64,000 nt of DNA from contig JAZDLR010000022.1 in NCBI GenBank assembly GCA_043801745.1, positions 65,960 through 129,959 on the forward strand. The letters are read 5' to 3'. The DNA comes from Candidatus Komeilibacteria bacterium (GTDB lineage Bacteria; Patescibacteriota; Patescibacteriia; UBA1558; 2-01-FULL-52-15). Numbering within the stretch: position 1 is the stretch's first letter; each line of letters opens with the position of its first letter. A program made the translations under genes and the position numbers. This document shows, piece by piece, positions 8,184 through 61,798 of this stretch. The notes below the pieces were generated by a model. It saw nothing but the letters and a program-made list of their open reading frames with translations, had not been told where the DNA came from and did no database searches.

Positions 8184-11100
8184 TTAGTCGCCAACGACTT
8201 GAGCAGTTGAAGAAGTGGTGTCTAAACCTGGGACACGGAAGCCATTGTACCAACCAACGTTGTTAGTAGCAGTGGTTGTGCTGTACAGATCAAAGTTCAG
8301 ATCTGACCAGATAAAGTCACCCAAATCCGTAGTAGTGTAGACGCCCTGGGCATGCTTCTGCGAAGTAGCCGCGTAAGCATGGTCGCCAGCCATTACAACT
8401 GAAATGCTTTCATTGTCAGCTGTACCATCATGACCAGAACTGACCGTACCACGTAGAGTGAAGTAGCGGGTAGTTCCAGCTCCGATGACAATGTGTTCTC
8501 CGACAGTAGGATCACTGTCATCATTCACGTCAAAGTAAGAACGCATAGTTATGGTACCAGCACCCGTATTAGTCACTAGAGAGAAGTCAGCACCTTTGCT
8601 AACCAGATCACCCAGTGAACTAGACGAACTTGATTCATACAGGTAGTAACCCGTAGTGCTCAAGTAGACAGTCGTGGTGCTAACACCGAAGGTAAACCGA
8701 TAGAGACCAACTGGACCAGCGCTATCGGCAGCCACAGAGAACTTATACAAGTTAATTGTGTCATTGCCAGTGATAGTTCCGGAACCAGCAAAGTCAATCT
8801 TGGTAACAGTCGGCAAACTCTTGAAGATAGCTACGTCATTAAACGTAGTACCTATACCAGAAACAGTTAACGCCGAGGAACCAGCTGAAGTGCCGTTAGC
8901 GTCAATGTTAGTCAAGCTAACTTTGACACCTTCGCCAGAAGCCGCAGCCGACGGGCTACCAACTCCGGTAAAGGTGGCTTTCACCACATAGGTCTTTTCT
9001 TCGTTAACAGCCTGCTTCATGTTAGTCGGGGTAATAGTAGCATTAGCGCTGCTAAGTGATACTTCGCCCAACTTCGTGGAGCCATCCCACAGCGACAAGC
9101 TGGAGATATCCTCGTAATTACCGGCAATACCACCAGACGGACTGGCTAAGGTAAAGCCTAAGTAATTATAGGTAACACCTTCGTACTTCGGCTGAATCGT
9201 GACACGGCCGATTTCTACCGTACTACCAGCAATATAGTTGGAAGCTTTCGGATCGCTGGCAATAGACACGTTCAAGGTACCGCCAGTGGTAAGCTGCATA
9301 GCCTGACCATTAGCGTTCGTCACAGTCGGAGTGATAGCTTGCGCTTCACTGTCAACAGCAGCGATAGAACCAACAACCGAAGCACTGGTATTGTTCAAGG
9401 CCACCAAGAATGTACCAGAGGTAGCACCCGTACCAATATCGGCTTTCAACGTAACAACCTTGGAGGTTCCCTTAGGAATAATCAAGGCATTATCATTCAA
9501 AGTCAGAGTAGTGGTAGCGTTTGTTGCGGCAGTGCTACAGGTAGCACCACTGCAAGTAGTACTATCAGAATTGATACCAATCTCAGTTGCGCCAGACCAC
9601 AGGGTGAAGCCAGACAGAATGTTCGGATAAGCAGCACCAGTAGTCTTATAGGTCGGGGAAATAGAAGTAACTTCAATATCCGTACCGGAATTAACGGCAC
9701 TTAAGACATATTGAGCCACTGTGAAATCCTGCGAACCAGCTACGACAGTTTGAGCAGCCGGAGTGGTGTCAGTAGTGACAGCCAAGCTGGCGGCCTTAAC
9801 AGTCATAGTTGAAGACTGAACATTGGTAGCTGCCGGTAACACAGAAATAGTATTACCGGTTGTTTCACCTTTATTAACAATGGCACCGGCTTCTACACCG
9901 ACCTTAATGGTGTCACTAGCTGTAAAGTCAGAGCTTAAGTCAGCTTTGACAGTATAGGTACTTTCACCAACCGGAACAGAAATAGTATCAGTCGTAGTAG
10001 CGGTATTCTTCATACCAGCACCAGTGTAGGTAATAGCCGTAAAGTCTTTCGGACCAGCCACAACAGCGCCAGAAGGACCATAGACAGTTACATTAGTAAT
10101 GTCAGTAAAGTCCGCGCTGGCAGAAGTAGTTGTCAGGACGAAATTCCAACCAATGCTGGTAATATTCATCGGTTCACCCTTAGCAACAAACTTGAAGGAA
10201 CCCAAGGCTACTTGAGTCAAACCTTCAGAAATATTGGTTGGGCTGATAGCTAGTGATTCTACGCGCAATGTACCATTACCAACCGTGGTCTGGGCAGCAT
10301 TGAAGTAGGGGCTAGAACTTACTCCGGTAAAGGTTGGCAAGATGTTGGTATTGTAACTATTACCGGAAACCACTAAGTCACCCTGCATGTCAATATCCAT
10401 AGATATATCGCGACCAGAACCGCTGTCAATATCTAAACGTACATCAAAGGTAACGTTTTTACCTTTACCCAAGGTGTAGTTGATATTGCTGAAGGTAACT
10501 TTCTTTGTCGCGACTGTAGCCATAGTAGCTATAGTAGCGTTGGTATTGGCATTAACCAGCTTAAGATTCTTGATATCAGAAGCTGAAGTAGAGCCATTAT
10601 TGGTCAACGTCACGCTCTTGATAGTCAAATCTTCTTGACCACCAGCCGTAACCTTAAAGGAAGATACGATGTAATTGGTCGTACCAACTTCCTTGGTAGC
10701 AGCTGAAGGATTCTGACCACCGGCAACCACAGTAGCAGTACCTATAAGGATCGTGCCATTGAGATTCTGATAGTTACCACTAATTGGTAATGAACCAGTT
10801 AAGGTAGCGCCACCTTTTAAGGTAACTGACTGAAGAGCCAATACTGGCACTTCACCGGCGTAACTGGCTAAGCCAGAAGCAGAAGACGTATTGGCTGCCA
10901 TATTACCGGCAATAATAACACCTAAGGTGCTATTAGCCGGAATGGTCCAATCATCATTGAAAGTAGCAGTATGCTCTGAACCCAGAGACTTACTGTAATC
11001 ATTCAAAGGCTGACTATCAGAGGCTCGGAGTAAATCCAAGTCAGTGAAAGCGCCATCAGAAGCTATGCCAAGCCGTTTCACTACCGCTTGATCAACTGTC

Positions 11101-15215: not shown

Positions 15216-15270
15216 TACCTACAACTATCTCGGCCACAGGCCGATCGCCCCAGTGGGCGAAACTTTCAAC
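15216..15270. repeat. direct repeat R2, partner of R1
   Basis: TACCTACAACTATCTCGGCCACAGGCCGATCGCCCCAGTGGGCGAAACTTTCAACT. Abuts the stop codon of 15271..16356. Confidence 0.5.
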
Positions 15271-16356
15271 TTAAAACTGCACAGTTATTTCCTGCTGCTT
15301 AGAAGCGCGGATTACGGTTAATTTTGTACTATCGCCAGCTTTATAACCCAGCAATAGTTTACCCAGGCTATTATTGTTTGTCAGGCTAATAGCTGTACCG
15401 CCAACAGCAGTAATGATGTCTCCCGGCTTAATACCGGCTTTAGAAGCAGGGGAATTGACGACAACTGCCGCCTTGGCAGGATTATAAACCAGAACTCCTT
15501 CATCCTCCTTATGTCCGGGTAAACGATACAGATCTAAATAATACAATCCGACAGAGACATAGGAACTTTTAGCTAAAAACTTATCCACAGCTGCATTCAA
15601 ATAATAGGCCGGCAACATCTTACCGTTCTGACCCAAACCAACCACTGAACCAGATAAACCAAAGAAAAACATCGGGTCACTGCTGACATACTCAGTTAAA
15701 GTCGTCTGATCAACCAGGCTAGGGCCATGAACCTGACTGGCTTTGCTAGTTGAATCAATCGCATTGACCTGACGAACTATTGTGCGGTCAAATAAATAAC
15801 CGGCCACCAGATGGGCCTGTTCAAAAACTAAGGTTGAGCCTTGATATAATTCATCATCACGGGCAAAGCGGATAGGAGATAAATTACTAGCATCAATTTT
15901 AATAAATCGCACTCCGGCTACAGAATCAATAGATTGTTCGCTGGGCCGATAAACTTTATTATTTACGACAATGTCAATCTGAGCCGGTAAAACTGCACCG
16001 GCCGGGAATATTAACCAGCCGTCAGAAGTAGCTATCAGAGCAGTACCAATATATTCCTTGTCGCTATATAGCTGATTAATTGCTTGTCCGGATTGTTCCA
16101 CATGAGTATAAACGGCGGCCAAATGCTGATCTAATTGATTAGCCACAACTGTTAAAGGCTCGTCAAACTTGATCTTAATGTTGGTAGTATCGTTACCAGA
16201 ACCAGTAATGATCGTATCCGCGGGATAAATAGCTCGCATTAAACTGAACCCGGCCGCACCCGTAACTAAACCGACTAAAGCACTAACAATAGTAACACTG
16301 ACCAGAGACGGTGGCCTCTCGGCTGTAGGACGAATAAAATGCTGAAAATTAGCCAT
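15271..16356 (-). CDS. PDZ-domain trypsin-fold (HtrA/S1C-like) membrane-anchored protein; catalytic His/Ser motifs not recognisable
   Basis: 361 aa. N-terminal TM; GTALIATSDGWLIF resembles the start of the trypsin fold, but TNNHV and GNSGG equivalents are missing (FFFGLSGSVVGL). C-terminal PDZ (GIKPGDIITAVGGTAISL...KLTVIR). Confidence 0.45.
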   Translation of the reverse strand: MANFQHFIRPTAERPPSLVSVTIVSALVGLVTGAAGFSLMRAIYPADTIITGSGNDTTNIKIKFDEPLTVVANQLDQHLAAVYTHVEQSGQAINQLYSDKEYIGTALIATSDGWLIFPAGAVLPAQIDIVVNNKVYRPSEQSIDSVAGVRFIKIDASNLSPIRFARDDELYQGSTLVFEQAHLVAGYLFDRTIVRQVNAIDSTSKASQVHGPSLVDQTTLTEYVSSDPMFFFGLSGSVVGLGQNGKMLPAYYLNAAVDKFLAKSSYVSVGLYYLDLYRLPGHKEDEGVLVYNPAKAAVVVNSPASKAGIKPGDIITAVGGTAISLTNNNSLGKLLLGYKAGDSTKLTVIRASKQQEITVQF

Positions 16357-35014: not shown

Positions 35015-35536
35015 TTAAGCGGTTTTTCTGTCTTTGACCGAATTAAGAACATTAACCAACCCCCGCAAATTTCCGGCCAGAACATTGACGAAACCGGATA
35101 CCGGAGCCTGAATGGTACGGACCGTAGCGGCCAGTAGTTCTAGTCTGCTAGGCAAAGCCGCCAAGGCCAATACTTTATCTTTGGAAATAAAGTTGCCTTC
35201 CAGCATTCCGCCCAGAATTACTAACTTCTCATTGGCTTTGGAAGCAGCGCGCACCAAACGGGCCGGAGCAACCGCGTCAGTATCAGAATAAGCCACTGCT
35301 ACATTACCCTTAGCTTCCAGAGTCGCGTCAATTTTAGCTTCAGCCAAGGCTTTCTGTAACAGAGTTTTCTTAATACCCTGATAACCAGCTTGCTCACTAC
35401 GCAATTTTTTACGCAAATCCTGGCTTTCCTTCACAGTCAAACCCTGATCGGAAGTAAACACTACTCCCTGACTGGAAGCTAATTTACTCTGAACTAGGTC
35501 TAACTCCTCTTTTTTTCGGGCTTTACTTTTTGGCAT
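35015..35536 (-). CDS. rplJ: 50S ribosomal protein L10
   Basis: 173 aa, L10 family; immediately upstream of rplL. Confidence 0.95.
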   Translation of the reverse strand: MPKSKARKKEELDLVQSKLASSQGVVFTSDQGLTVKESQDLRKKLRSEQAGYQGIKKTLLQKALAEAKIDATLEAKGNVAVAYSDTDAVAPARLVRAASKANEKLVILGGMLEGNFISKDKVLALAALPSRLELLAATVRTIQAPVSGFVNVLAGNLRGLVNVLNSVKDRKTA

Positions 35537-35854
35537 AATTTTGAATAGCTCATCCCCCTTCGCTAAAGCTTTGGGGGATTATTTCGCTAAAGCGAAATAA
35601 AATAATCTGTGAGTAACCACAGACATTAAGGTTTCCAGTCATAACTGGATGCGGCCTCGGTAGGAAATTAAGTCCTTCGACTCCTGCGTCTGACGCAGTC
35701 GCTCAGGACACCCACTGTCTGTGGCATTTGATTTGTGATCAGAGTGTATCAAAGTGATGACTTTTAGTCAACTGCCGCAGTTTCAAGTTGAAAGTTGGAA
35801 GTTGTCAGCAAGACGCTTTAAACATTCAACTTTCAACTGAAAACTATTAGCTAA

Positions 35855-35952
35855 CCCCGTTAGAGAAAGCCTAATTCAATAAAATTCCTCATTAAGAACA
35901 TGAGACTGGTAAAAAACCACATTTATTAAAACAATTTACATCTCTAACGGGG
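35855..35952. promoter_or_regulatory. 12-bp inverted repeat pair CCCCGTTAGAGA ...(74 nt)... TCTCTAACGGGG, 42 bp upstream of the ncRNA promoter -35
   Basis: Read directly from the sequence. The same IR pair with a different 52-nt interior recurs at 47515-47590. Confidence 0.35.
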
Positions 35953-35993
35953 CTAATATTAGCCAAATATACAGAATATTTGCATTTCAAGTC

Positions 35994-36023
35994 TTGACAA
36001 AAATTTAAGTATATGCTAGAGTG
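35994..36023 (+). promoter_or_regulatory. strong sigma70-type promoter: -35 TTGACA (35994-35999), 18-nt spacer, extended -10 TGcTAGAGT (36015-36023)
   Basis: gtcTTGACAaaaatttaagtatatgcTAGAGTg with an AT-rich upstream tract. Drives rightward transcription into the ORF-free GC-rich region. Confidence 0.6.
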
Positions 36024-36029
36024 CCCACA

Positions 36030-37251
36030 TTGCTTCTGGCACCCTGCTGGAAAGCAACTAGGCGCCTCAAGCGGCATCGCGTCCGCGAAGAGGATTTGAA
36101 CAAGTCTGGAGGGACCAAAAAACATGATCCATTCGACCTGCTACGCCTACATTTACGGCAACATCATCGCCTGAACCGGCCCCGGCCGGCGGGCCCAGGA
36201 GTACTGAACAGACGGACAAGCGACCTTCCAAAATGAGGATAACCCTCGGAGTCGCGATCCACTGACCCGGTTCCTGGCCCACACATCCACGCGAGCCGGT
36301 ACTGCGTTTGAAGCGGTAGCCGTTCGCTCTCCCCTGAGGGAGATTCCGGAAACCTAAACATACGCCGGAAAGGATAACCAGCAATGATGCAATGACCGCG
36401 CGTAGAGGTGCGCTCCCGAGATGCTCGCTGGTACTTAGAGAAGTACCCAACCCCAGCGACATCGAACTTTTCACGGACGCTCCACACGGGAGGAGCATCC
36501 AAACGGCGGGAGGGTCACCGCCGAAAACAAAGACTCTTGCCACAGCAGTCACTGCCAAAGCGGCAACTGACTGTGGGCATCACCATCCTGAATACCGGCC
36601 ACGAGGCCAGTACCGGAGGACGAGTGATCGGCATTATCCGCGCGTAGAGGAGCGCACCCGTTTCGATAGCCCCGGGAAAGAATTTAGTAACACCAACCCA
36701 ACCCGGCAGCTATCATGCTCCATACGGGAGGAGCAACCAGTAAACGGCGGAACGGTCACCGCCAAAAAAACGACCGCGTACATTCAAAAGCAGGTGGCGC
36801 CGCTTGCGGCCGGGCAGTTCCTGCTCGACTAGCAGGCGCACACGCGCCCCTTTTCTGTAAAAAAGACACACTGGTCGTGTCCGTCAGCCCACCGTTCCCC
36901 GCAATTGCCGGGAACATTGAACAACCATTTCGGGCCCGGACAACGCCAGTGTAACGTACGGCCGTGCCCACGGGTATTCCAAGCCCATTGTGCCGGCCGG
37001 CAAATCGCGCTGACTCTCTCGGGATACCGAGCAGCCGACCACAGGACCCCGGACTCACACCGCATTGAAAGGCTTCGGCTAAGGCGGGCTAGTGACTCTG
37101 GGCACATCCACAGGTCAAAGGCGCGATAGAACGACCCGGGATATGCAAGGGAGTAGAGAGGGTTCCGAACCAAATGGAACCACTCCCCCAAATATACCCG
37201 GCCAGTGCCCCAATCAATACATCGATTGGGGCACTATTTTTTTCGCCACAT
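36030..37251 (+). ncRNA. large (~1.2 kb) GC-rich structured ncRNA candidate of unknown class
   Basis: Bounded by the promoter above and a canonical intrinsic terminator at 37207-37251. Much more GC-rich than flanking sequence in an AT-rich genome. Every reading frame is broken into short overlapping ORFs (70-160 aa, all six frames), the typical signature of non-coding GC-rich sequence. Contains two homologous ~135-nt modules (36398-36532 and 36640-36772) and many hairpins. Confidence 0.5.
37207..37251 (+). terminator. intrinsic terminator of the candidate ncRNA
   Basis: GCCCCAATC-aatacatc-GATTGGGGC followed by ACTATTTTTTT; 8-bp perfect stem plus T7 run. Confidence 0.7.
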
Positions 37252-37470
37252 ATAAAAACCTACCGAGCACAGCTCGGTTGAGATCAAATGATGCGAACCC
37301 GCCGAAGCCCCGAGCTCGGTGAGGGGCAAATGGCGGGTAACTACCTTAAATTTAATCAGGTCTAATCCGACGGAAATAAACAAAAGCCAACCCGCCGACT
37401 CGGCCTCCGTAGCCGCTTCGGCGAAGGGGGCAGCGTCTGCGCGTAGGCGGTTATTTCCTACAAACTATTA

Positions 37471-38526
37471 CTAATTCAAATACAACTCTCTATTTTTCTT
37501 ATGTTCTTCCAGCGTCCTAGCATAGTGCACTCCGCCGTCTTTATCAGTCAGAAAATAATAATACGGATTGGCCGTAGGATATAAAGCCGCTTGTATACTG
37601 GCAAGACCCGGATTGGAAATCGGCCCAGGAGGCAAACCTTTATATTTATAAGTATTATAAGGTGAATCAATTTTCAAATCAGCTAGTGACGGCCGCGTCG
37701 TGCCTTTACCGGTAATATAATTTACCGTGGCATCAGACTGCAAACCAATCCCAGCCTTAATACGTTTCCAGAAAATATCAGCAATCATTTTCTTGTCGGC
37801 GTGCAAGGGCACTTCTTTCTCAATAATTGAAGCCATAATAATTACTTCATATAAGGTATGACCCGACTGCCTAATATCACTAATCATTGGACCAGAAATT
37901 TTAGCTTCAAAATTCTGCAGTTGCTTCTGAACAATACTCGCCATTTTAGTTGACTGAGTAATCTGATAAGTATCAGGGAACAAGAATCCCTCTAATGAAT
38001 TCCCATCAGGTATGGCCTGAGTCAGAGGAAAATCGTCGCGGTAGGCTACGTTGGAAAGAGTCAAATCTACATAATCCTTGGCAGCAAAACCGCGCGTAGC
38101 CAGATAGGCAGCGTTTTCTTTCCGGTTCCAGCCTTCGATAAACGTTAAATTGTCTTTTTGACCAGAAGCTCCTCGCATCAGCTCCTTTACCAGGACGTGA
38201 ATACTCATACCAGTATTTAAACTGTATCTGGCGGCAATCAGCTTATCTTCCGCCCCAATCAGCCAGACGTAACTTTCAAAAATAAATTTGCTACCAATCA
38301 AGCCATTCCGGTGCAAATTATCGCTGATAGTATTGACTCCCTGACCGGATTCAACGTTAAAAATAATCTCCCGGCCCGGCAGCTGCGTTGGCCGAAATAA
38401 TTCAATCGTCACCCAAGCCGCGACTATTAACACAGCCGCAATCAGACACAGAAAAAATGCTTTAATTATTGGCCCCACCATAATAAAATAATGCCTAAAA
38501 TAATTGTGTAAATGGAAAAAACCCAC
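37471..38526 (-). CDS. mltG: endolytic murein transglycosylase (YceG/MltG family)
   Basis: 351 aa; N-terminal TM plus YceG-like domain (pattern GLQSDATVNYITGKGTT..L...DSPYNTYKYKGLPPGPISNPG). Confidence 0.8.
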   Translation of the reverse strand: MGFFHLHNYFRHYFIMVGPIIKAFFLCLIAAVLIVAAWVTIELFRPTQLPGREIIFNVESGQGVNTISDNLHRNGLIGSKFIFESYVWLIGAEDKLIAARYSLNTGMSIHVLVKELMRGASGQKDNLTFIEGWNRKENAAYLATRGFAAKDYVDLTLSNVAYRDDFPLTQAIPDGNSLEGFLFPDTYQITQSTKMASIVQKQLQNFEAKISGPMISDIRQSGHTLYEVIIMASIIEKEVPLHADKKMIADIFWKRIKAGIGLQSDATVNYITGKGTTRPSLADLKIDSPYNTYKYKGLPPGPISNPGLASIQAALYPTANPYYYFLTDKDGGVHYARTLEEHKKNRELYLN

Positions 38527-55189: not shown

Positions 55190-58100
55190 TTACTTAAGAA
55201 GTTTAAATGGCTTAGATGGCACAAGGTGCGTCCCTGTTTTACTGAAATGAATAGTACCTCTGGTTGTATCGAATAATTTTCCCGTTTTATCGTCGATGTA
55301 CTTACCAATAGTTTCACCGAAATCAATCGTTTCTTTCCATAGCTTTCCCTGATTAAATATTTTTTGACCCTTACCGGCGAATTCATTAATTAGTTTTTGT
55401 GGGTTAGTGTGGGTCACAATACTTTTGCCAACCTCATATGATTCCCCAAGTGCATGCTTAGCTTGCTTTGTAGCATCTATCGTCAGATTCAGTCCCTTAG
55501 TAGCCCCCTTAGCTAGGTCGTCAGCGTGTTTAGCTACAAACCCCGCCCCCTCTTTACTTCCTTTCCCATATCCACCTCCAGGTAGTGCTAATCCTAGGGC
55601 TACGCCACCAACAGACAACGCCTTGTCTGAATTTGATGAATTGGGATTGGCTAATGTGTTAGCAGTATCGTAATAATCATACATTGTTAATCCAACCTCG
55701 ACAACTCCCCAGGCAATTAGAATTAATGGGATAATTTTTCCATCGGGATCTACGTATCGGATAGGATTATTGACCGAATAAGCATAAGAGTTGAGATTCT
55801 GGGGATTCTGGAGATGAATCGCTAACGGTCTACCTGCGCTTTCCTTAAATTGCGCCTCATTACCCAACTCAAATAAGATCGTATCAATACTATTAAATCG
55901 TCCTATTTCCTGATTATAGTAACGTGCTCCAAAGTAAGATAGGTTAGTCTCACCATCGAGCTCTTTACCGGTATATTTATGATTATCACCAATGTTGATC
56001 GTGGTATTACTATAGGATATGGTTCCGTAGGGATAATAATCAGTTGTATCAATAATCTGGCCACTAGTGTCAGTAGTTAAAGAGCTTGATCCTAAATGAT
56101 CCGAGAGATCATAATAAATCCCAGTATTAGGGTCATTTAGGACATCTGTGGCTAATTTAATATTGCCCAGAAAGTAGAAATTACGAGCAGCTCCGCTATA
56201 TTCTTTTTCATAGTACTTATCTATATAGTAGGTAGCACTATCCTCGCTAGCCGGAATAGAGTTTAATTCAATAGGAATCTGGAGTCTATCTGAAGTAGAG
56301 GTAGCTTCGGTATCATCAATAGGTGGCAATACAATATCATCAGTACTGGTAGCGATAATCTCGGGCGTTGAGGTGGCCAGGGGCTCGGGTAAGATAATAA
56401 TATCTGGGGTCGTAGTAGCTAACGGCTCAAATTCGGGTAAGACAGGATCGGTAGTAACTAGTAGCACATCAAGCCGCTGATCATCAACAGTAATATTTGC
56501 GTCTGATTCAGCTGAACCGTCTTCAACCTTTATACTTTGCGCAGCAACCTCCCCACCCAAGGTATCTATATTAGGATCTATTAACTCTACATCAGGCACT
56601 TTAGGATTATTCACTTCCTCCTCTGATGTTGGTTCTAAAGGTACTACGATACTCTGTTGTTCGGGTAAGGGACATTCTTCGTGAGACGGATCACAGGGGT
56701 CGCCTCCTGGAGGAGCTTCGTAGATAATAGTGTGTTTCTTGACTCTTTGATTCGTGTGATCATAGACATATTCCGTGTGATCAGCTGATCCGTCCAGAGT
56801 ACTGCCAGTCATACGGTCGCGCCAGTCGTAGTTTAAAGTATCGGAATTGATAAACCTCACATTACCGTTATTATCATAGGATAAGGTTTTATCTCCGGCT
56901 GTGCGGGCTTGGTGGGGGTTGTTTAAAGTATAAGTGTAGTCCCCGACTCCGGTCTGCGATAAGATATTGCCAATGCTGTCATAAGTGAAACTACGGGTGT
57001 AATTAGTATTACTGGCGGAATTAGTAACAGTTACTGAAAGCAAACGATTCAAATCGTCATAACTATAACTGACATTTTTCGCCAACTGCGTGGCCGAAGT
57101 ATCGATCAAAGTTAAAATATTTCCATTCGGATCATAGATGTAAGCAATATCCTGTAAAACTCGGGAGCCCTTCACACTATGAATACGGGTCAGACGATAA
57201 TTCTGGCTCGCGTCATAAGTATAATCAGTAACAATTCCATTGCCGCGCTCCAAGTGCGCCACCTGACCCATCGGAGAATAAGTAACATTCTGCGCTAAAA
57301 CAGTGGTCTGACTATTTTTAACTTTATTCACCTGACTAACCTGTCCAGCCGAATTGTAAAGATAATCAACGCGCTCGCCTTCAGGATAAGTAATTGATGT
57401 CACGTTGCCGTTCCAGTCGTAGGTATAAGTTAAGACATAACTATTGCCGTCAATCATTCGGGTAACTGTCAGCGGCTTGCCCTGCGGATCATAAGTATAG
57501 ACCGTAGTTAAACCGTCACTGCCAACCACGCGGGTCAATCGACCCAGCTGTCCACTACCCTGATCATAAGTCAGCGTATACTCTGTTCCTGTCTGAGCAG
57601 TGAAGTTCTCGGTTAATAGCCGGTTCAGAGCGTCATAAGTATAATTCGTGGTCTGATACTTCGGATCTCGTTTGTTTAGAACGTTGCCGTTCTTATCATA
57701 AGTATAGGTCCAGTGCATCGGATTACTGACGCTGGCTTTATGCACCATATCCTGTTGCGTCAGATTATCCAAAGCGTCATAAGTAAAGTTACGGATGTTT
57801 CCTTGGCTGTCAGTAATTTTCCTCAGCTTATTGGTTAAAGTATATTCATAATTAGTCGTGTAGATCGAACTGCTGTTAAACTCCTCCACTTTCACCAAAT
57901 TGCCAAACGCATCGTTGGTCAATTTCTTGATCTTGCCCCGCGGATCAGTAATCGTAGTGGTCAAACCATCATAAGCATAACTAGTAGTGCCAGTTAAGAT
58001 GACTTCGGATAATTTACGGTTTAGACTGTCATAAGTGGTGACTTTCGCGTTCGTGAAGCTGGGACTGGAATTATAGGCATTTGAAGATGTAAACACTGGC

Positions 58101-61100
58101 AAGGATTCGCGGTTGACGCGGTCCTGACTGTCATAAGCGGTATAGGAAGTAACATATTGCCCGCTGACATCAGAACGCGAACTTTGGATCACCCGGCCTA
58201 AACCGTCATAGTATTCGCGGGAAGTAACATAATGACCCGTGCTAAAATAATCTTTAACTTCTTTATAGTTCGGAAAATTGGCGTCCTGATAAATTATCTC
58301 CTGTTTTGTAATCAAATTAGCCGCGTTAGCCGGATCAGACACCTCTTTCTTGATCAACCGGCTAAAAGCATCATAAGTATTTTTCTCCTGATAACCATTA
58401 GGATCACGGGAATATAATAATTGTCCGCTTACTGGGTCGTATTCAGTGACAGTCACGCGGCCCAAAGCATCAGTGGTCGTGGACACGAATAAATGCAGGG
58501 GTTCATAAGCTAAAGTTACCGCGGTATTTTCTTTCGGATCTTTCTTAGTCAACGGCAAGCCAAAACTGTCGTAAGTGGTTTCAATGTCAACGGTATTGAC
58601 TTTCAAATCTTCTTTCGTGACATTAGCGCGGTCGATCTGTCCTAAAGCTAACTGGTCGTAATACAGATCCTGATCTTTGGTCTCACCAATACCGGAAACT
58701 ACTTTTGTTTTAGGTGCACCAACAATATACTTTTGACTGTTAGTAGCATAAGCGTAAGTAGTAGTTTTCTCATCGCCAGTCAGCTGATCAATAATATCAC
58801 CACTACCGGTATTAGCAGTAACCTGACCAAGATTTTGTTCTTCCGTGACATTACCCAGAGCGTCATATTCGTAAGTTGTGGCCTGTGATTTGGCTGCTGT
58901 TCCGAAAATAGTTTGCGTGCCGCGCTCAACGAAAGAAAAAATTCTGTTGTCTGGCAAATTCACCGCATTAACCTTACTAACATTTTGCTGTAATAATTGT
59001 CCGCTAGCATTACGAATCTCCTGTCTGAACGGCTGACCTATTTTGGCATAGCTATCCTGATATTCTCCCATAGCCGACCCGTCCAATCCTCCACCCTGAT
59101 GATAATAAGTCGTTATCAGGCTGTCGCTTTCAGCTTTGGTAACCTTACCAAAACCCACAAACCTATTCTGTTTAATATTACTACCGACATAGTAACTACC
59201 GTCCTCATAGCTATAATTTACTGTTTGCTGGTTACCCAATCCATCGTTATAGTCAATTTCCGACACAACCGGCACATTAACGATTGACCGCGGATTCAAA
59301 AGTTGCTGATTCTCATCTTTCAATTGAGCCGAGGCAGCATAGTCAGCGCTAACAATGGTCTGATCCAGCCGTTTAATACTTCGCAGCTTTTGCCAATCAG
59401 CCGGTTGATTAAGAGTACGAACCGAATTTTCCTGCTCTTCATAAACATACTCAGTTTTATAGGAGGTATTATAGCTTGGCATCAGGCTACCGGTAGCATC
59501 AAATAAACGGAATCTGGAATTATAATCTAAACGTTTATTATCTCCCGTGTATTCACCAAAAATAAACGGTATTTGGTAACTGGTATCAATATTCCATTGC
59601 CCATTTCCGCTGTTAATATAAACATTTTTTATGTCTGAATTATTTTGCCAATAATCATGGTAGGACTCAACAAAGTCCGCCAAACCATCAGCGTTTATAT
59701 CCAAAATTTTGAATCTAAAACCATAATCATTCAATACTTGTGTAGTGGTATAATAGGAAAAATCCAGCGGAATGATCCAGGAAGTATCCAAATCCCAACC
59801 ACTCTTACCATTATTAATATAAACAGCCTTCTGATGGGTATTAATCGCCTGATCATACTGTGAATACATTAAATCTGGTAAACCATCACCATTAACATCG
59901 GCCACTCTATATTCGCTCTGACGGTCACTAATTTCATTACTGGAAGCGTGATAAGTAGCAAAATATACAGGTACGGTCCAATTAGTATCAAGGTTCCAAC
60001 CATTAATCCCGTTATTCAAATAGACATGCTGAATATGAGTAGCGGCATTATCATCACGGTATGATTCCACAAAATCAGCCAAGCCATCACCATTAATATC
60101 GGTAAAAATAAACTCCGGTGTATAAACCATCTGTTCACTACCACTAGAAGCATAATTGGCAAAATTTAAAGGTACAATCCAGCCAGTTGCCAATGTCCAG
60201 CCGTTAATACCATTATTCAAATAAACCTGTTGTACTGGAACATTTTCCACGGAATATGACACGACAAAATCTTCCCGCGAATCACCATTAACGTCACCAA
60301 CAACAAATCTGCTTTGATAATTCCAAATCGGCCAGCTACAAGTATCATAACGAAAGGCAAAATCAAATGGTAACTGCCAATCAGAAGTTGTTGCCCAGCC
60401 ATTAACGCCATTATTTATGTATGTTTTCTGATAAATATTTTCCGGACAATCTTGATTACTATGCAACAAGTCGGTCAATGAATCGCCATTAACATCCAAG
60501 GGCAAAAAGGCAAAAGTACCGCGTTGTGAAACATTTGAAACGTCTATAGACTCAAACCTAAAAGGCAGCTGATAATTACCATCAGTGATCCACTCTTTAG
60601 ACGAAGTACCATAATCAAAATCCGTAGCCGGCAGATATTCCCAGCCACTACCATTATTGCCCGCTTCTTTGACACGGCTAATCATTGTCTGGCCTGCTTC
60701 ACCAGCTATAGTCTCTAAATCATATTTCTTCTTAGCCACACCGTTTACCAAAACTTGAATAGTATTAATGGCATATTTGGTAGTCACAGAAAAACCCGCC
60801 TCCTGACTATTGGATATATCCGGTCGTGTACTAATGGGACCAGAATAAATCGGATCAAATATAATTCTATACGGCCCGTCAACGGTGCCATTACCAGTAT
60901 AATATATCGCTTTCGGATAAATAGCGCCGGAATCTTTCCAATACTCGTAGCGCAAAAAATTATCATTGGTGTCACGGATTTCGGCTAAATACCAGCGGTA
61001 AATTTTGCCGGCATCAGCCTGGTCGTTTTGACGGCTGGCACTATCGGAACCAAAAGTATATACAGTACCGGTCTTATCTGTAACTTTCCAAGTCTTGTCA

Positions 61101-61798
61101 GTAAGCCACTCAATTTTATAAAACTGACTTTCCACTTCAACTCCATAAGTACCGTAGCCATCTTGGTCAACAGATAGCGGCAGCAAATTGCCGCCACCCG
61201 GTAAACTTAAAACAAAATCAAAATTGGTATAACGTTTTTCCGTTCCTTGCCGACCCGAACGCTCAATAAAAGGGCTATCTAAGTCCCAACCCAAACCATA
61301 AAACGAATCCTTATTATTACGCTGACTATTATAGGTCAAGGCCAAAGAAGGCTGTAAGCCATTACGGCCCTTAGGAATGTCTAGAGAGTAGTTATAACTA
61401 AAAGCGCCAGTGGATTCAACAACTTGCGCTTGATCATTTTTCCCGATTGCGAATTTATTTGGGTTCTTGGCGGCAAAAAAATCATTACCAGCATTTGGCA
61501 CTTCACTGCCGTCACCACTCGCCTGCTCACTGGTTTCCGGAACAATCGGCGGTAAAGAGCTTTCAATAGTCTGCTTCTGGTCCTGACTAATGTTACTGTC
61601 AGACGCGTCAGTCGCTGTGTCAGCTAACAAAAAAGCACTCTTATTTTCTGGAGTGCCGGCATTAGTGACATTTACTTTACTGGCTGCCAAAACTGGCATC
61701 AATGGCATGCCAACCGTAGTGACGATTAAAAATATAATAACTATTCTGCCAAGCCCGAGATTAGCTCTCAACATATATTTATCATGATTTATAAACAA
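55190..61798 (-). CDS. Rhs/YD-repeat polymorphic toxin (2202 aa) with N-terminal FG-GAP-like repeats and C-terminal variable toxin domain
   Basis: Signal peptide (likely true start Met at 61772-61774: MLRANLGLGRIVIIFLIVTTVGMPLMPVLAA; ORF-track start is TTG). FG-GAP-like DINGDGLADFV, DVNGDGLPDL, DINADGLADFV. Many YD repeats (YTYDALGNV, YDAFSRL, YYDGLGRV, YTAYDSQDRV, YAYDGLTTTITDPRGK). Rhs core ...YFGARYYNQEIGRFNSIDT...NPIRYVDPDGK, then a ~190-aa tip. Confidence 0.9.
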   Translation of the reverse strand: MFINHDKYMLRANLGLGRIVIIFLIVTTVGMPLMPVLAASKVNVTNAGTPENKSAFLLADTATDASDSNISQDQKQTIESSLPPIVPETSEQASGDGSEVPNAGNDFFAAKNPNKFAIGKNDQAQVVESTGAFSYNYSLDIPKGRNGLQPSLALTYNSQRNNKDSFYGLGWDLDSPFIERSGRQGTEKRYTNFDFVLSLPGGGNLLPLSVDQDGYGTYGVEVESQFYKIEWLTDKTWKVTDKTGTVYTFGSDSASRQNDQADAGKIYRWYLAEIRDTNDNFLRYEYWKDSGAIYPKAIYYTGNGTVDGPYRIIFDPIYSGPISTRPDISNSQEAGFSVTTKYAINTIQVLVNGVAKKKYDLETIAGEAGQTMISRVKEAGNNGSGWEYLPATDFDYGTSSKEWITDGNYQLPFRFESIDVSNVSQRGTFAFLPLDVNGDSLTDLLHSNQDCPENIYQKTYINNGVNGWATTSDWQLPFDFAFRYDTCSWPIWNYQSRFVVGDVNGDSREDFVVSYSVENVPVQQVYLNNGINGWTLATGWIVPLNFANYASSGSEQMVYTPEFIFTDINGDGLADFVESYRDDNAATHIQHVYLNNGINGWNLDTNWTVPVYFATYHASSNEISDRQSEYRVADVNGDGLPDLMYSQYDQAINTHQKAVYINNGKSGWDLDTSWIIPLDFSYYTTTQVLNDYGFRFKILDINADGLADFVESYHDYWQNNSDIKNVYINSGNGQWNIDTSYQIPFIFGEYTGDNKRLDYNSRFRLFDATGSLMPSYNTSYKTEYVYEEQENSVRTLNQPADWQKLRSIKRLDQTIVSADYAASAQLKDENQQLLNPRSIVNVPVVSEIDYNDGLGNQQTVNYSYEDGSYYVGSNIKQNRFVGFGKVTKAESDSLITTYYHQGGGLDGSAMGEYQDSYAKIGQPFRQEIRNASGQLLQQNVSKVNAVNLPDNRIFSFVERGTQTIFGTAAKSQATTYEYDALGNVTEEQNLGQVTANTGSGDIIDQLTGDEKTTTYAYATNSQKYIVGAPKTKVVSGIGETKDQDLYYDQLALGQIDRANVTKEDLKVNTVDIETTYDSFGLPLTKKDPKENTAVTLAYEPLHLFVSTTTDALGRVTVTEYDPVSGQLLYSRDPNGYQEKNTYDAFSRLIKKEVSDPANAANLITKQEIIYQDANFPNYKEVKDYFSTGHYVTSREYYDGLGRVIQSSRSDVSGQYVTSYTAYDSQDRVNRESLPVFTSSNAYNSSPSFTNAKVTTYDSLNRKLSEVILTGTTSYAYDGLTTTITDPRGKIKKLTNDAFGNLVKVEEFNSSSIYTTNYEYTLTNKLRKITDSQGNIRNFTYDALDNLTQQDMVHKASVSNPMHWTYTYDKNGNVLNKRDPKYQTTNYTYDALNRLLTENFTAQTGTEYTLTYDQGSGQLGRLTRVVGSDGLTTVYTYDPQGKPLTVTRMIDGNSYVLTYTYDWNGNVTSITYPEGERVDYLYNSAGQVSQVNKVKNSQTTVLAQNVTYSPMGQVAHLERGNGIVTDYTYDASQNYRLTRIHSVKGSRVLQDIAYIYDPNGNILTLIDTSATQLAKNVSYSYDDLNRLLSVTVTNSASNTNYTRSFTYDSIGNILSQTGVGDYTYTLNNPHQARTAGDKTLSYDNNGNVRFINSDTLNYDWRDRMTGSTLDGSADHTEYVYDHTNQRVKKHTIIYEAPPGGDPCDPSHEECPLPEQQSIVVPLEPTSEEEVNNPKVPDVELIDPNIDTLGGEVAAQSIKVEDGSAESDANITVDDQRLDVLLVTTDPVLPEFEPLATTTPDIIILPEPLATSTPEIIATSTDDIVLPPIDDTEATSTSDRLQIPIELNSIPASEDSATYYIDKYYEKEYSGAARNFYFLGNIKLATDVLNDPNTGIYYDLSDHLGSSSLTTDTSGQIIDTTDYYPYGTISYSNTTINIGDNHKYTGKELDGETNLSYFGARYYNQEIGRFNSIDTILFELGNEAQFKESAGRPLAIHLQNPQNLNSYAYSVNNPIRYVDPDGKIIPLILIAWGVVEVGLTMYDYYDTANTLANPNSSNSDKALSVGGVALGLALPGGGYGKGSKEGAGFVAKHADDLAKGATKGLNLTIDATKQAKHALGESYEVGKSIVTHTNPQKLINEFAGKGQKIFNQGKLWKETIDFGETIGKYIDDKTGKLFDTTRGTIHFSKTGTHLVPSKPFKLLK

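Follow-up and report, generated by a model that had tools for sequence, protein, structure and literature searches.

A GC-rich transcription unit between rplJ and mltG of Candidatus Komeilibacteria, probably a large RNA gene without protein product

The transcription unit

In the 64,000-nucleotide stretch of DNA that we analysed (hereafter the window), a GC-rich region of about 1.2 kb lies between the genes rplJ and mltG; a sequence-only reading had proposed it as a candidate large structured non-coding RNA (ncRNA) with its own promoter and terminator. The host is a metagenome-assembled genome of Candidatus Komeilibacteria, which belong to the Patescibacteria or candidate phyla radiation (CPR), and the MltG protein of the window is 100% identical to a Komeilibacteria protein at NCBI. 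Judged by its sequence features, the region is a discrete promoter-to-terminator transcription unit without a coding frame. It is delimited by the following elements:

35951-35970, plus strand: upstream palindrome GGCTAATATTAGCC, then AAATAT, exactly 22 nt before CTTGACA; single occurrence in the 64-kb window
35994-36022, plus strand: sigma-70 promoter, with the -35 hexamer TTGACA (35994-35999), a 17-nt spacer and the TG-extended -10 element TAGAGT (36014-36022)
37204-37243, plus strand: intrinsic terminator, a 12-bp stem with an 8-nt loop (37204-37235), then T7; dG -22.4, z -8.4

The promoter is the top-scoring promoter-like site within the surrounding 3.5 kb (10/12 plus the TG), and transcription probably starts near 36028-36031. 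The sequence-only reading had recognised both the near-consensus promoter and the textbook terminator; only the spacer, given there as 18 nt, and the stem, given there as 8 pairs, required correction. Its remark that the interval is richer in GC than its surroundings is borne out by the bin 36001-37000, whose GC content of 0.578 is the highest among the 64 one-kb bins of the window (mean 0.443, sd 0.034, runner-up 0.532). The composition of the RNA strand is A.26, C.31, G.27 and U.16.

Homologous units in related species

Homologous units were found by following MltG homologues to their contigs and by one scan of a genome collection for the promoter context; a metagenome scan with MltG gained few close relatives. 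At least five other species have a unit in this position between mltG and rplJ, at the loci L001, L049, L002 (also L003 and L037), L051 and L004 (also L005 and L052). The six units compared, from about six species including that of the window, are about 750, 850, 855, 925, 1140 and 1215 nt long. Common to all of them are the palindrome GGCTAATATTAGCC-AAATAT, the promoter, a 5′ hairpin and a strong terminator of their own. Within the unit-bearing group, RplJ identity is 68-97%, compared with 42-49% to L030, which has no unit; the nearest relative of the window shares 83% over the C-terminal 150 amino acids (aa) of MltG and 69% over the full-length protein.

The palindrome, which stands at a fixed spacing from the promoter in L001, L002, L004, L049 and L051, is a candidate regulator site. 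The same palindrome-N22-CTTGACA promoter also heads a tRNA operon in other Patescibacteria (L031, 2528-3630, and L041), and in L044 (4749-4970) the palindrome and promoter head a terminator-ended RNA of ~170 nt adjoining rpmF. The combination therefore looks like a control region of the stable-RNA type.

Two side observations concern these additional loci. The tRNA operon of L031/L041 has a 430-nt leader of unexplained content, for which there was no Rfam match. The ~170-nt RNA of L044 has a long closing stem and a 6S-like look, and it also gave no Rfam match.

In distant relatives, the junction is occupied differently. We observed a GC-rich insert encoding a secreted 235-aa protein with a signal peptide in L030 (6150-6857), a ClpP-like insert in L024 (~490-1060), a PRTase-like protein of 276 aa in L053 (2671-3501) and nothing GC-rich in L022 and L027. 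The RNA is missing at the mltG/rplJ junction, the only region covered, of L030, L053, L027, L022 and L024, and the L030 and L024 inserts showed no relation to the block. From this pattern, the mltG-rplJ junction reads as a variable spot, or hot spot for lineage-specific cargo, with the RNA confined to one Komeilibacteria subclade. Separately, an FHA-like ORF (open reading frame) of 102 aa lies just 3′ of the RNA in L001 (9175-9483), L049 and L025.

Coding potential and known families

We identified no credible ORF in the block by Pfam, homologue, conservation or recoding searches, and in this respect the shattered frames described by the sequence-only reading stand. ORF length reaches at most 163 aa on the antisense and 146 aa on the sense strand. 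Nine block ORFs gave no match to Pfam; the 163-aa antisense ORF had no homologue among 5.8 billion proteins, and the 146-aa sense ORF gave one low-complexity match only among 1.84 billion representatives. The ORF called in L004 matched only itself in a protein search. Six-frame tblastn between units returned nucleotide-level motif matches only, in all frames, with no frame-specific conservation. No ORF is conserved between relatives, and indels between L001 and L049 shift every long frame. A 909-nt open frame appears in the window when TAG is read as sense; with any single stop codon reassigned, no frame is open consistently across the six units.

Based on Rfam 15 cmscan, there was no match in the block at the gathering threshold, nor on 35700-37600 at E<=10, and this covers GOLLD, ROOL, OLE, HEARO, raiA, RNase P RNA, tmRNA, 6S, SRP RNA, group I/II introns and rRNA. 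No RNA-family match was obtained in the units of the five homologous loci at E<=1; the only Rfam matches in the window and these loci were tRNAs and the L10 leader. ARAGORN detected two tRNAs and no tmRNA in the 64-kb window. The absence of RNase P, tmRNA and group I/II introns, which had been judged from sequence motifs, is thus confirmed with covariance models. Additionally, blastn against phage and plasmid collections found no similarity to the block, and Tandem Repeats Finder (TRF) found no tandem array in it. A repetitive extragenic palindromic (REP) element or a miniature inverted-repeat transposable element (MITE) is ruled out, as no second copy of any block part occurs in the 64-kb window. 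In the literature on large ncRNAs in CPR, Patescibacteria or Parcubacteria, we found no description of such an RNA. By all these comparisons, the RNA belongs to no described RNA family.

Conservation of the body

When the window unit is aligned with L004, or L002 with L051, only the first ~125-150 nt align, and the remainder is at random-alignment level (0.32-0.55). A GC content of 0.51-0.585 and a strand skew of A>U and C>G are kept in all six bodies, the sequence mostly not. In the L001/L049 pair, unit positions 440-785 are 88-98% identical, compared with 0.55-0.63 at third codon positions of ordinary flanking genes, and hold no conserved ORF apart from 7 codons. This difference makes purifying selection on non-coding sequence clear in at least the L001/L049 lineage. 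In an RNAalifold consensus of this domain, all pairs are kept, but the consensus is biased.

Structured parts of the RNA

The predicted structural features of the window RNA are:

36030-36057, plus strand: 5′-terminal hairpin P1 (UUGCUUCUGGCA/UGCUGGAAAGCAA); dG -11.1, z -2.2
36384-36535, plus strand: module beta (copy A), in AAUGAUGCAAUGA context; hairpins H1 36396-36413, H2 36420-36463, H3 36479-36496, H4 36504-36522
36615-36776, plus strand: module alpha (copy B), with GGAGG at 36615-36619; hairpins H1 36638-36655, H2 36665-36714, H3 36717-36734, H4 36745-36763
36777-37203, plus strand: 3′ body, GC-rich hairpins of the window lineage in the minimum free energy (MFE) fold; no similarity to other lineages

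Across the six lineages, 91% of the cells of P1 are paired. Downstream, the window has two paralogous modules of ~145 nt (36389-36535 and 36631-36776), direct repeats 242 nt apart, so that each of the three hairpins quoted in the sequence-only reading is present twice, about 240 nt apart. Their shared parts are H1 (CCGCGC-GUAGAGGW-GCGC), H3 (GCUCC-AYACGGGA-GGAGC) and H4 (CGGCGG-8 nt-CCGCC); H2 is a long hairpin with an 11-bp stem in both copies, of different sequence (z -4.6 in copy A, -4.1 in copy B). Copy A folds with a z-score of -3.0 (H3 -3.0, H4 -2.7), and 200-nt segments of the 3′ body gave z-scores of -5.4 (36800-36999), +0.8 (36900-37099) and -3.0 (37000-37199). In all six units, sliding-window folding z-scores are more negative on the sense than on the antisense strand.

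The RNAs of the window, L001 and L004 each have two copies of the H1 hairpin (18-20 nt, CCGCGC-GUAGAKGW-GCGC), at a spacing of 146-242 nt; that of L049 has one copy, and those of L002 and L051 have none. An identical 20-mer, UCCGCGCGUAGAUGAGCGCC, is found in L001 and L004. Elsewhere the motif is at chance level, and a scan of viral contigs gave 7 single matches in GC-rich phage, all chance-like. Two sequence contexts precede it. The alpha context, CGAGUGNYCG-N5-6-H1, with the core CGAGUGNYCG-N5-6-(U)CCGCGCGUAGAKGAGCGC, is found in window copy B and in the modules L001-1, L049-1 and L004-2. The beta context, AAUGAUGNAAUG-H1, is that of window copy A and L001-2, and L004-1 has a related one. Since each context is common across lineages, the window modules are, on sequence criteria, orthologous to those of the other species, copy A having its orthologous context in L001-2 and L004-1. 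A covariance model built on the two window modules recovered only the 18-nt H1 hairpin in other lineages.

A compact H-type pseudoknot comes after H1 in all six instances (6/6) from L001, L004 and L049. Its first stem, S1, has the form G-N-CCC/GGG-N′-C, and a loop segment N-CCUC pairs with GAGG-N′ located 9-12 nt downstream via an A-rich loop. Two positions show three to four pair types, and the chance of such a pseudoknot in dinucleotide shuffles is 0.0007-0.012 per instance (six instances, three species). The sequence-only reading had proposed a search of related genomes for a syntenic, covarying block: the synteny was found in at least five other species and the covariation in these sister-lineage pseudoknots, not in P1. 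Hairpins with z-scores of -3 to -4.6, paralogous helices and the sister-lineage pseudoknots support the view that, as modelled, parts of the RNA behave like structured RNA.

Additional pairings were noticed by eye. In both copies of the window module, the H3 loop contains CGGG, a possible partner for the CCCG that directly follows H1, and the strand order is the same in the two. In the alpha module of L001 (unit positions 256-300, ~10150-10195 on the minus strand), the start region GUGUCC is near-identical to the pseudoknot strand S1a (GUGCCC); either could pair with S1b (GGGCAC), a possible translation-dependent switch.

Shine-Dalgarno-like motifs and mini-ORFs

The statement that the shattered frames lack ribosome-binding sites (RBS) did not survive: Shine-Dalgarno (SD)-like pentamers are enriched, and several stand before start codons. 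The six units contain 61 such pentamers, compared with 27.8 in dinucleotide shuffles (2.2-fold) and 16 on the opposite strand; in the window alone, 16 lie on the RNA strand and 0 on the opposite one. ORFs of 4-9 codons led by an SD-like motif and a start codon number 12, where 1.1 would be expected; the opposite strand has 0, and 0/300 shuffles reach the observed count. Two SD-led frames of different size in the window are:

36108-36174, plus strand: small ORF (sORF) of 16 codons, GGAGG at 36108-36112, ATG at 36124, TGA at 36172-36174; peptide MIHSTCYAYIYGNIIA
36624-36647, plus strand: mini-ORF MIGIIRA, GTG at 36624 to TAG at 36645-36647, its stop in the loop of the copy B H1; SD GGAGG at 36615-36619

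The mini-ORF product M(V/I/T)S(Q/R)HPP-stop recurs in L001, L049 and L002, and other products are MPRDPP-stop and MDRAPPA-stop. A further set has its stop in the H1 loop: MSDSSARR, MSVPSARR, MSDEIRA, MMKCFRA, MSRIRA and the MIGIIRA of the window. Among the seven H1 hairpins, six are preceded by an SD and start codon in frame with a UAG or UGA in the loop, a number reached by none of 2000 upstream shuffles. An SD followed by ATG and an sORF of 16-24 codons at about +100 is present in four lineages (window, L004, L002 and L051) and lost in L001/L049; its SD and first codons are among the best-conserved bases, and its peptide is not conserved beyond 3-5 residues. Because of these dense SD-like motifs and mini-ORFs, the description 'purely non-coding' is not secure.

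Neighbouring genes and other features of the locus

The genes around the RNA unit are mltG, uppP, a DUF212 gene, fpg, rplJ and rplL. The features closest to it are:

35015-35536, minus strand: rplJ, with its own promoter; rplL is also on the minus strand, and the RNA unit is divergent from rplJ
35589-35742, minus strand: Rfam L10 leader (RF00557), 50 bits against a 44-bit cutoff; a separate element, not part of the RNA
37471-38526, minus strand: mltG, which converges on the RNA unit

The suggestion that the RNA replaces rplK-rplA upstream of rplJ has to be abandoned, as rplJ lies divergently on the opposite strand with its own promoter and L10 leader, and relatives without the RNA also have no rplK-rplA at the mltG/rplJ junction.

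Between the RNA terminator and the mltG stop codon lies a GC-rich stretch of ~220 nt (37245-37472). It folds into three long hairpins, with z of about -3.3 to -3.7 whichever strand is taken, contains internal direct repeats (AACCCGCCGA...) and has, on the minus strand, a hairpin that resembles a terminator (37278-37262). It is missing from the homologous loci and may be an element of the mltG 3′ untranslated region or a small palindromic insert. On the other side, AAGTTGA/CTTTCAA heptad repeats are arranged as an inverted repeat (35776-35850) that lies between the promoters of rplJ and of the RNA; the same words recur at 15261-15280 and around the L002 RNA (9100-9200 and 10400-10470), and may be a genome-wide intergenic motif. 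At 35849-35964, directly 5′ of the palindrome and in the window only, a 17-nt inverted repeat (TAGCTAACCCCGTTAGAGA / TCTCTAACGGGGCTA) flanks an AT-rich segment of ~75 nt, with a local folding z-score of -5.25. Far from the unit, a gene at 55190-61798 on the minus strand encodes a polymorphic toxin, here in a CPR genome: the protein of 2202 aa contains SpvB, FG-GAP and RHS repeats, and its C-terminus is an Ntox50 toxin domain.

Interpretation and alternatives

We consider it likely that the unit is a functional RNA gene without a protein product. The proposal of a large structured ncRNA is upheld insofar as the unit has no coding frame, a homologous unit in at least five species and structured parts; an 'ornate', globally conserved fold is not established. 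The fuller statement, that this is a structured, stable RNA gene of ~1.2 kb whose invariant hairpin loops are recognition sites, we hold to be slightly more probable than its negation.

Several observations weigh against this view. Most of the RNA body is unalignable even between close species: L002 and L051 are 90% identical in RplJ and 96% in the MltG C-terminus, yet their bodies, which differ by ~285 nt, do not align; the 5′ 150 nt and the terminator are kept, and the pattern suggests replacement by recombination. Mean folding z-scores are modest, from -0.6 to -2.4 over the six units (about -2 for the window), and the C>G skew is atypical for structured RNAs. Changes in P1 across the six lineages are one-sided only, with no compensatory change, and in the MFE fold of L001 itself 10/11 substitutions at paired positions break pairs, with stem depletion at only P=0.012. 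The compact pseudoknot was not found in the window RNA, for which the fold is predicted from thermodynamics and from the comparison of its two internal paralogues, and the window's own copy offers little covariation. As for the translation signals, window copy A has no H1-terminated mini-ORF, and the SD pentamers are predicted to be mostly paired, with P(unpaired) of 0.05-0.07 compared with a background of 0.14; they may simply be G-rich helix strands, with the mini-ORFs as by-products. The SD of the HPP mini-ORF pairs, with covariation, with its own codons 2-3, and this hairpin therefore explains part of its apparent 'synonymous' or peptide conservation. The search criteria for mini-ORFs and pseudoknots were chosen after examples had been seen, and L001 and L049 are not independent.

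An unlikely alternative is that the unit serves mainly as the mRNA of one very small peptide or of several (the 5′ sORF of 16-24 codons and/or the heptapeptide mini-ORFs), that is, a dual-function or small-protein gene whose GC-rich remainder serves as a stabilising or regulatory 3′ region. It would explain the well-conserved SD and first codons of the sORF at about +100 in four lineages, the enrichment of mini-ORFs on the sense strand only and the recurrence of the HPP-stop heptapeptide in three lineages. However, the sORF1 peptide is hardly conserved and the frame is lost in L001/L049 though nearby nucleotides are kept, the SDs are predicted to be sequestered, and within L001/L049 440-785, where constraint is strongest, conservation of an ORF extends to 7 codons only. 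Additionally, 1 kb of maintained GC-rich sequence is left unexplained.

We give similarly little credence to the idea of non-functional cargo, that is, GC-rich DNA, foreign or decaying, that came to lie at a variable junction and is read from a strong promoter already present there, with the hairpins as a by-product of GC content. The different inserts of relatives at this junction (secreted protein, ClpP-like, PRTase-like or nothing), the unalignable bodies of 750-1215 nt and the modest z-scores would all fit it. Nevertheless, a domain of 350 nt is 88-98% identical against about 60% at neutral-like sites, six lineages have kept GC content and strand skew on a background that is biased towards AT, and the promoter, the 5′ hairpin and the strong terminator are kept in every lineage. 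Moreover, a 20-nt hairpin is identical between diverged lineages, the pseudoknots covary, the motif enrichment is strand-specific, and the longest frames have no protein homologue and the block no phage or plasmid match.

Less probable still is a precursor cut into smaller RNAs, one per module of about 150-240 nt, in the manner of a polycistronic small RNA or guide-RNA array with H1 as processing or protein-loading signal. The repetition of H1 at 146-242-nt spacing with variable sequence between copies, together with a body that is hypervariable between close species, is compatible with it, and CPR genomes host unusual guide-RNA arrays: the tandem interspaced guide RNA (TIGR) arrays, made of tandem ~36-nt dual-spacer units or tandem stem-loops beside a Nop-domain Tas gene, are known in CPR (PMC12045711). 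Against it, each RNA has at most two repeats, which form no regular array, no phage match was found, no Nop/Tas, Cas or other effector gene is adjacent (mltG, uppP, rplJ and rplL are the neighbours), and the segments between the hairpins hold conserved structure (the pseudoknot) and not spacer-like sequence. A TIGR array as such was rejected, as TRF reported no array, the two hairpin repeats are 242 nt apart, and the mltG/rplJ flanks include no Tas/Nop neighbour; a CRISPR array (24-48-nt repeats, 25-70-nt spacers) was rejected on the same two repeats and the lack of a tandem array.

A divergent or expanded universal stable RNA (tmRNA, RNase P RNA, 6S, SRP RNA or an rRNA fragment) missed by covariance models is largely excluded, and we regard it as very improbable. 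The stable-RNA-type promoter would suit such an RNA, and a short ORF with its stop in a hairpin, ahead of pseudoknots, is reminiscent of the mRNA-like part of tmRNA. However, there is no Rfam match (E<=10 in the window, E<=1 in the five homologues), ARAGORN finds no tmRNA, the ends are not tRNA-like, the mini-ORFs have SDs and start codons, unlike tmRNA, and the RNA is missing at the junction of the close relatives L030, L053 and L027, which would be unexpected for an essential RNA.

Finally, a protein gene hidden by recoding (alternative code, readthrough or frameshifting) is also largely excluded and scarcely credible. In its favour, stop codons 6-10 nt upstream of H-type pseudoknots have the geometry of viral readthrough or frameshift signals, and TAG as sense gives the 909-nt frame of the window. 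Against it, no frame is consistently open across the six units under any single stop reassignment, the offset of 242 nt, which is not divisible by 3, puts the two modules in different frames, six-frame tblastn found motif matches in all frames alike, and the L001/L049 indels break every long frame.

Returning to a functional RNA gene, the promoter type, the position beside rplJ-rplL, the strand-specific SD enrichment and the mini-ORFs that stop in H1, before a pseudoknot or multi-hairpin block, point to a link with the translation machinery. The mechanism that we prefer, as an inference and at low confidence, is the engagement of ribosomes or 30S subunits by the RNA as a sensor or sponge. The RNA would accumulate as a stable, hairpin-rich molecule whose invariant hairpin loops could be docking sites for a protein or the ribosome. 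Masked SD and start elements with their mini-ORFs would admit ribosomes or 30S subunits, and a ribosome stopping in the H1 loop would abut the next pseudoknot in the sister lineages, or H2-H4 in the window. The RNA would thus act as a translation-linked sensor or sponge, not as a protein template.

A more speculative extension, which we think rather improbable as a whole, is a new class of ribosome-engaging modular RNA in CPR, highly expressed from a stable-RNA-type promoter, with modules that capture or report on ribosomes and a fast-changing remainder. Each module would comprise a masked SD, a start codon, a mini-ORF of 6-8 codons, a stop in an invariant hairpin loop and then a pseudoknot or multi-hairpin roadblock. 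It could report, for example, on termination or EF-P status via the Pro-Pro-stop and Arg-stop endings, and the rest of the body would undergo rapid turnover or be swapped among lineages.

Comparison with known systems

By analogy, the RNA is most like the large 'ornate' ncRNAs OLE, GOLLD and ROOL (RF01071, RF01998 and RF03087) in size class and genomic signature. These are also RNAs of 0.6-1.2 kb with their own transcription unit, no ORF and a GC-rich island in a lower-GC genome, and the discovery logic, a long GC-rich intergenic region, is the same. In contrast, the Komeilibacteria RNA has no match to their covariance models. Those families have extensive covarying architectures across many genera, whereas the present RNA, found in one subclade and rich in SD-like motifs and mini-ORFs, keeps only its 5′ region and an 18-20-nt hairpin with about 35 nt of context, the other domains being lineage-specific. 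OLE RNA has a Bacillota host and the adjacent partner genes oapA, oapB and oapC; membership in OLE was rejected, the host here being Candidatus Komeilibacteria with mltG, uppP, the DUF212 gene, fpg, rplJ and rplL as neighbours.

tmRNA has a tRNA-like domain formed from its 5′ and 3′ ends, and its tag ORF has neither SD nor start codon. The sister-lineage modules share with it a short frame with its stop in a hairpin, followed by H-type pseudoknots with A-rich loops. The Komeilibacteria RNA differs in having no tRNA-like domain, an SD and a start codon on its mini-ORFs, several modules per RNA and a distribution that is not universal among relatives; tmRNA is ruled out by ARAGORN, Rfam and the SD and start codon of the mini-ORFs.

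Dual-function RNAs (Staphylococcus aureus RNAIII, SgrS, SR1) are likewise structured, independently transcribed RNAs with an RBS and a small ORF. Compared with them, the Komeilibacteria RNA has two to five times the length and several mini-ORFs, each of only 4-9 codons, its peptides are mostly unconserved, and no target complementarity was identified for it.

Leader-peptide or arrest attenuators and recoding signals, such as the erm/cat leaders and TnaC, combine a stop or slippery site with a spacer and a pseudoknot. The likeness lies in SD-led short ORFs that end in Pro-Pro, Arg-Ala or Arg-Arg, with strong structure 6-10 nt after the stop. The difference is that no slippery site or extended frame was found and that no gene lies downstream for it to control, since the terminator of the unit faces the 3′ end of mltG. 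The arrangement of mini-ORF, hairpin and pseudoknot is also reminiscent of viral recoding signals, without their downstream frame.

Sponges of the CsrB/RsmZ type expose many ANGGA motifs in hairpin loops, and their genomes have a csrA/rsmA gene. Here too a short, purine-rich, SD-like motif is over-represented in one non-coding transcript; however, instead of ANGGA in hairpin loops the motifs are GGAGG-like, and most of them are paired in the predicted fold; their repeat number and regularity are much lower.

Implications

Large bacterial RNAs without a known job are rare, and OLE, GOLLD and ROOL have repeatedly opened new biology. No large RNA of this sort was found in the CPR literature, and the reduced genomes of CPR bacteria leave little room for ballast. 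The present RNA pairs invariant hairpins with RBS-like elements and heptapeptide ORFs that end in Pro-Pro or Arg, beside rplJ-rplL. If ribosomes engage it, it would give ultra-small symbionts a novel means to sense or buffer translation; if ribosomes do not, it would still be a new clade-restricted RNA family that mixes hyper-conserved and hyper-variable parts.

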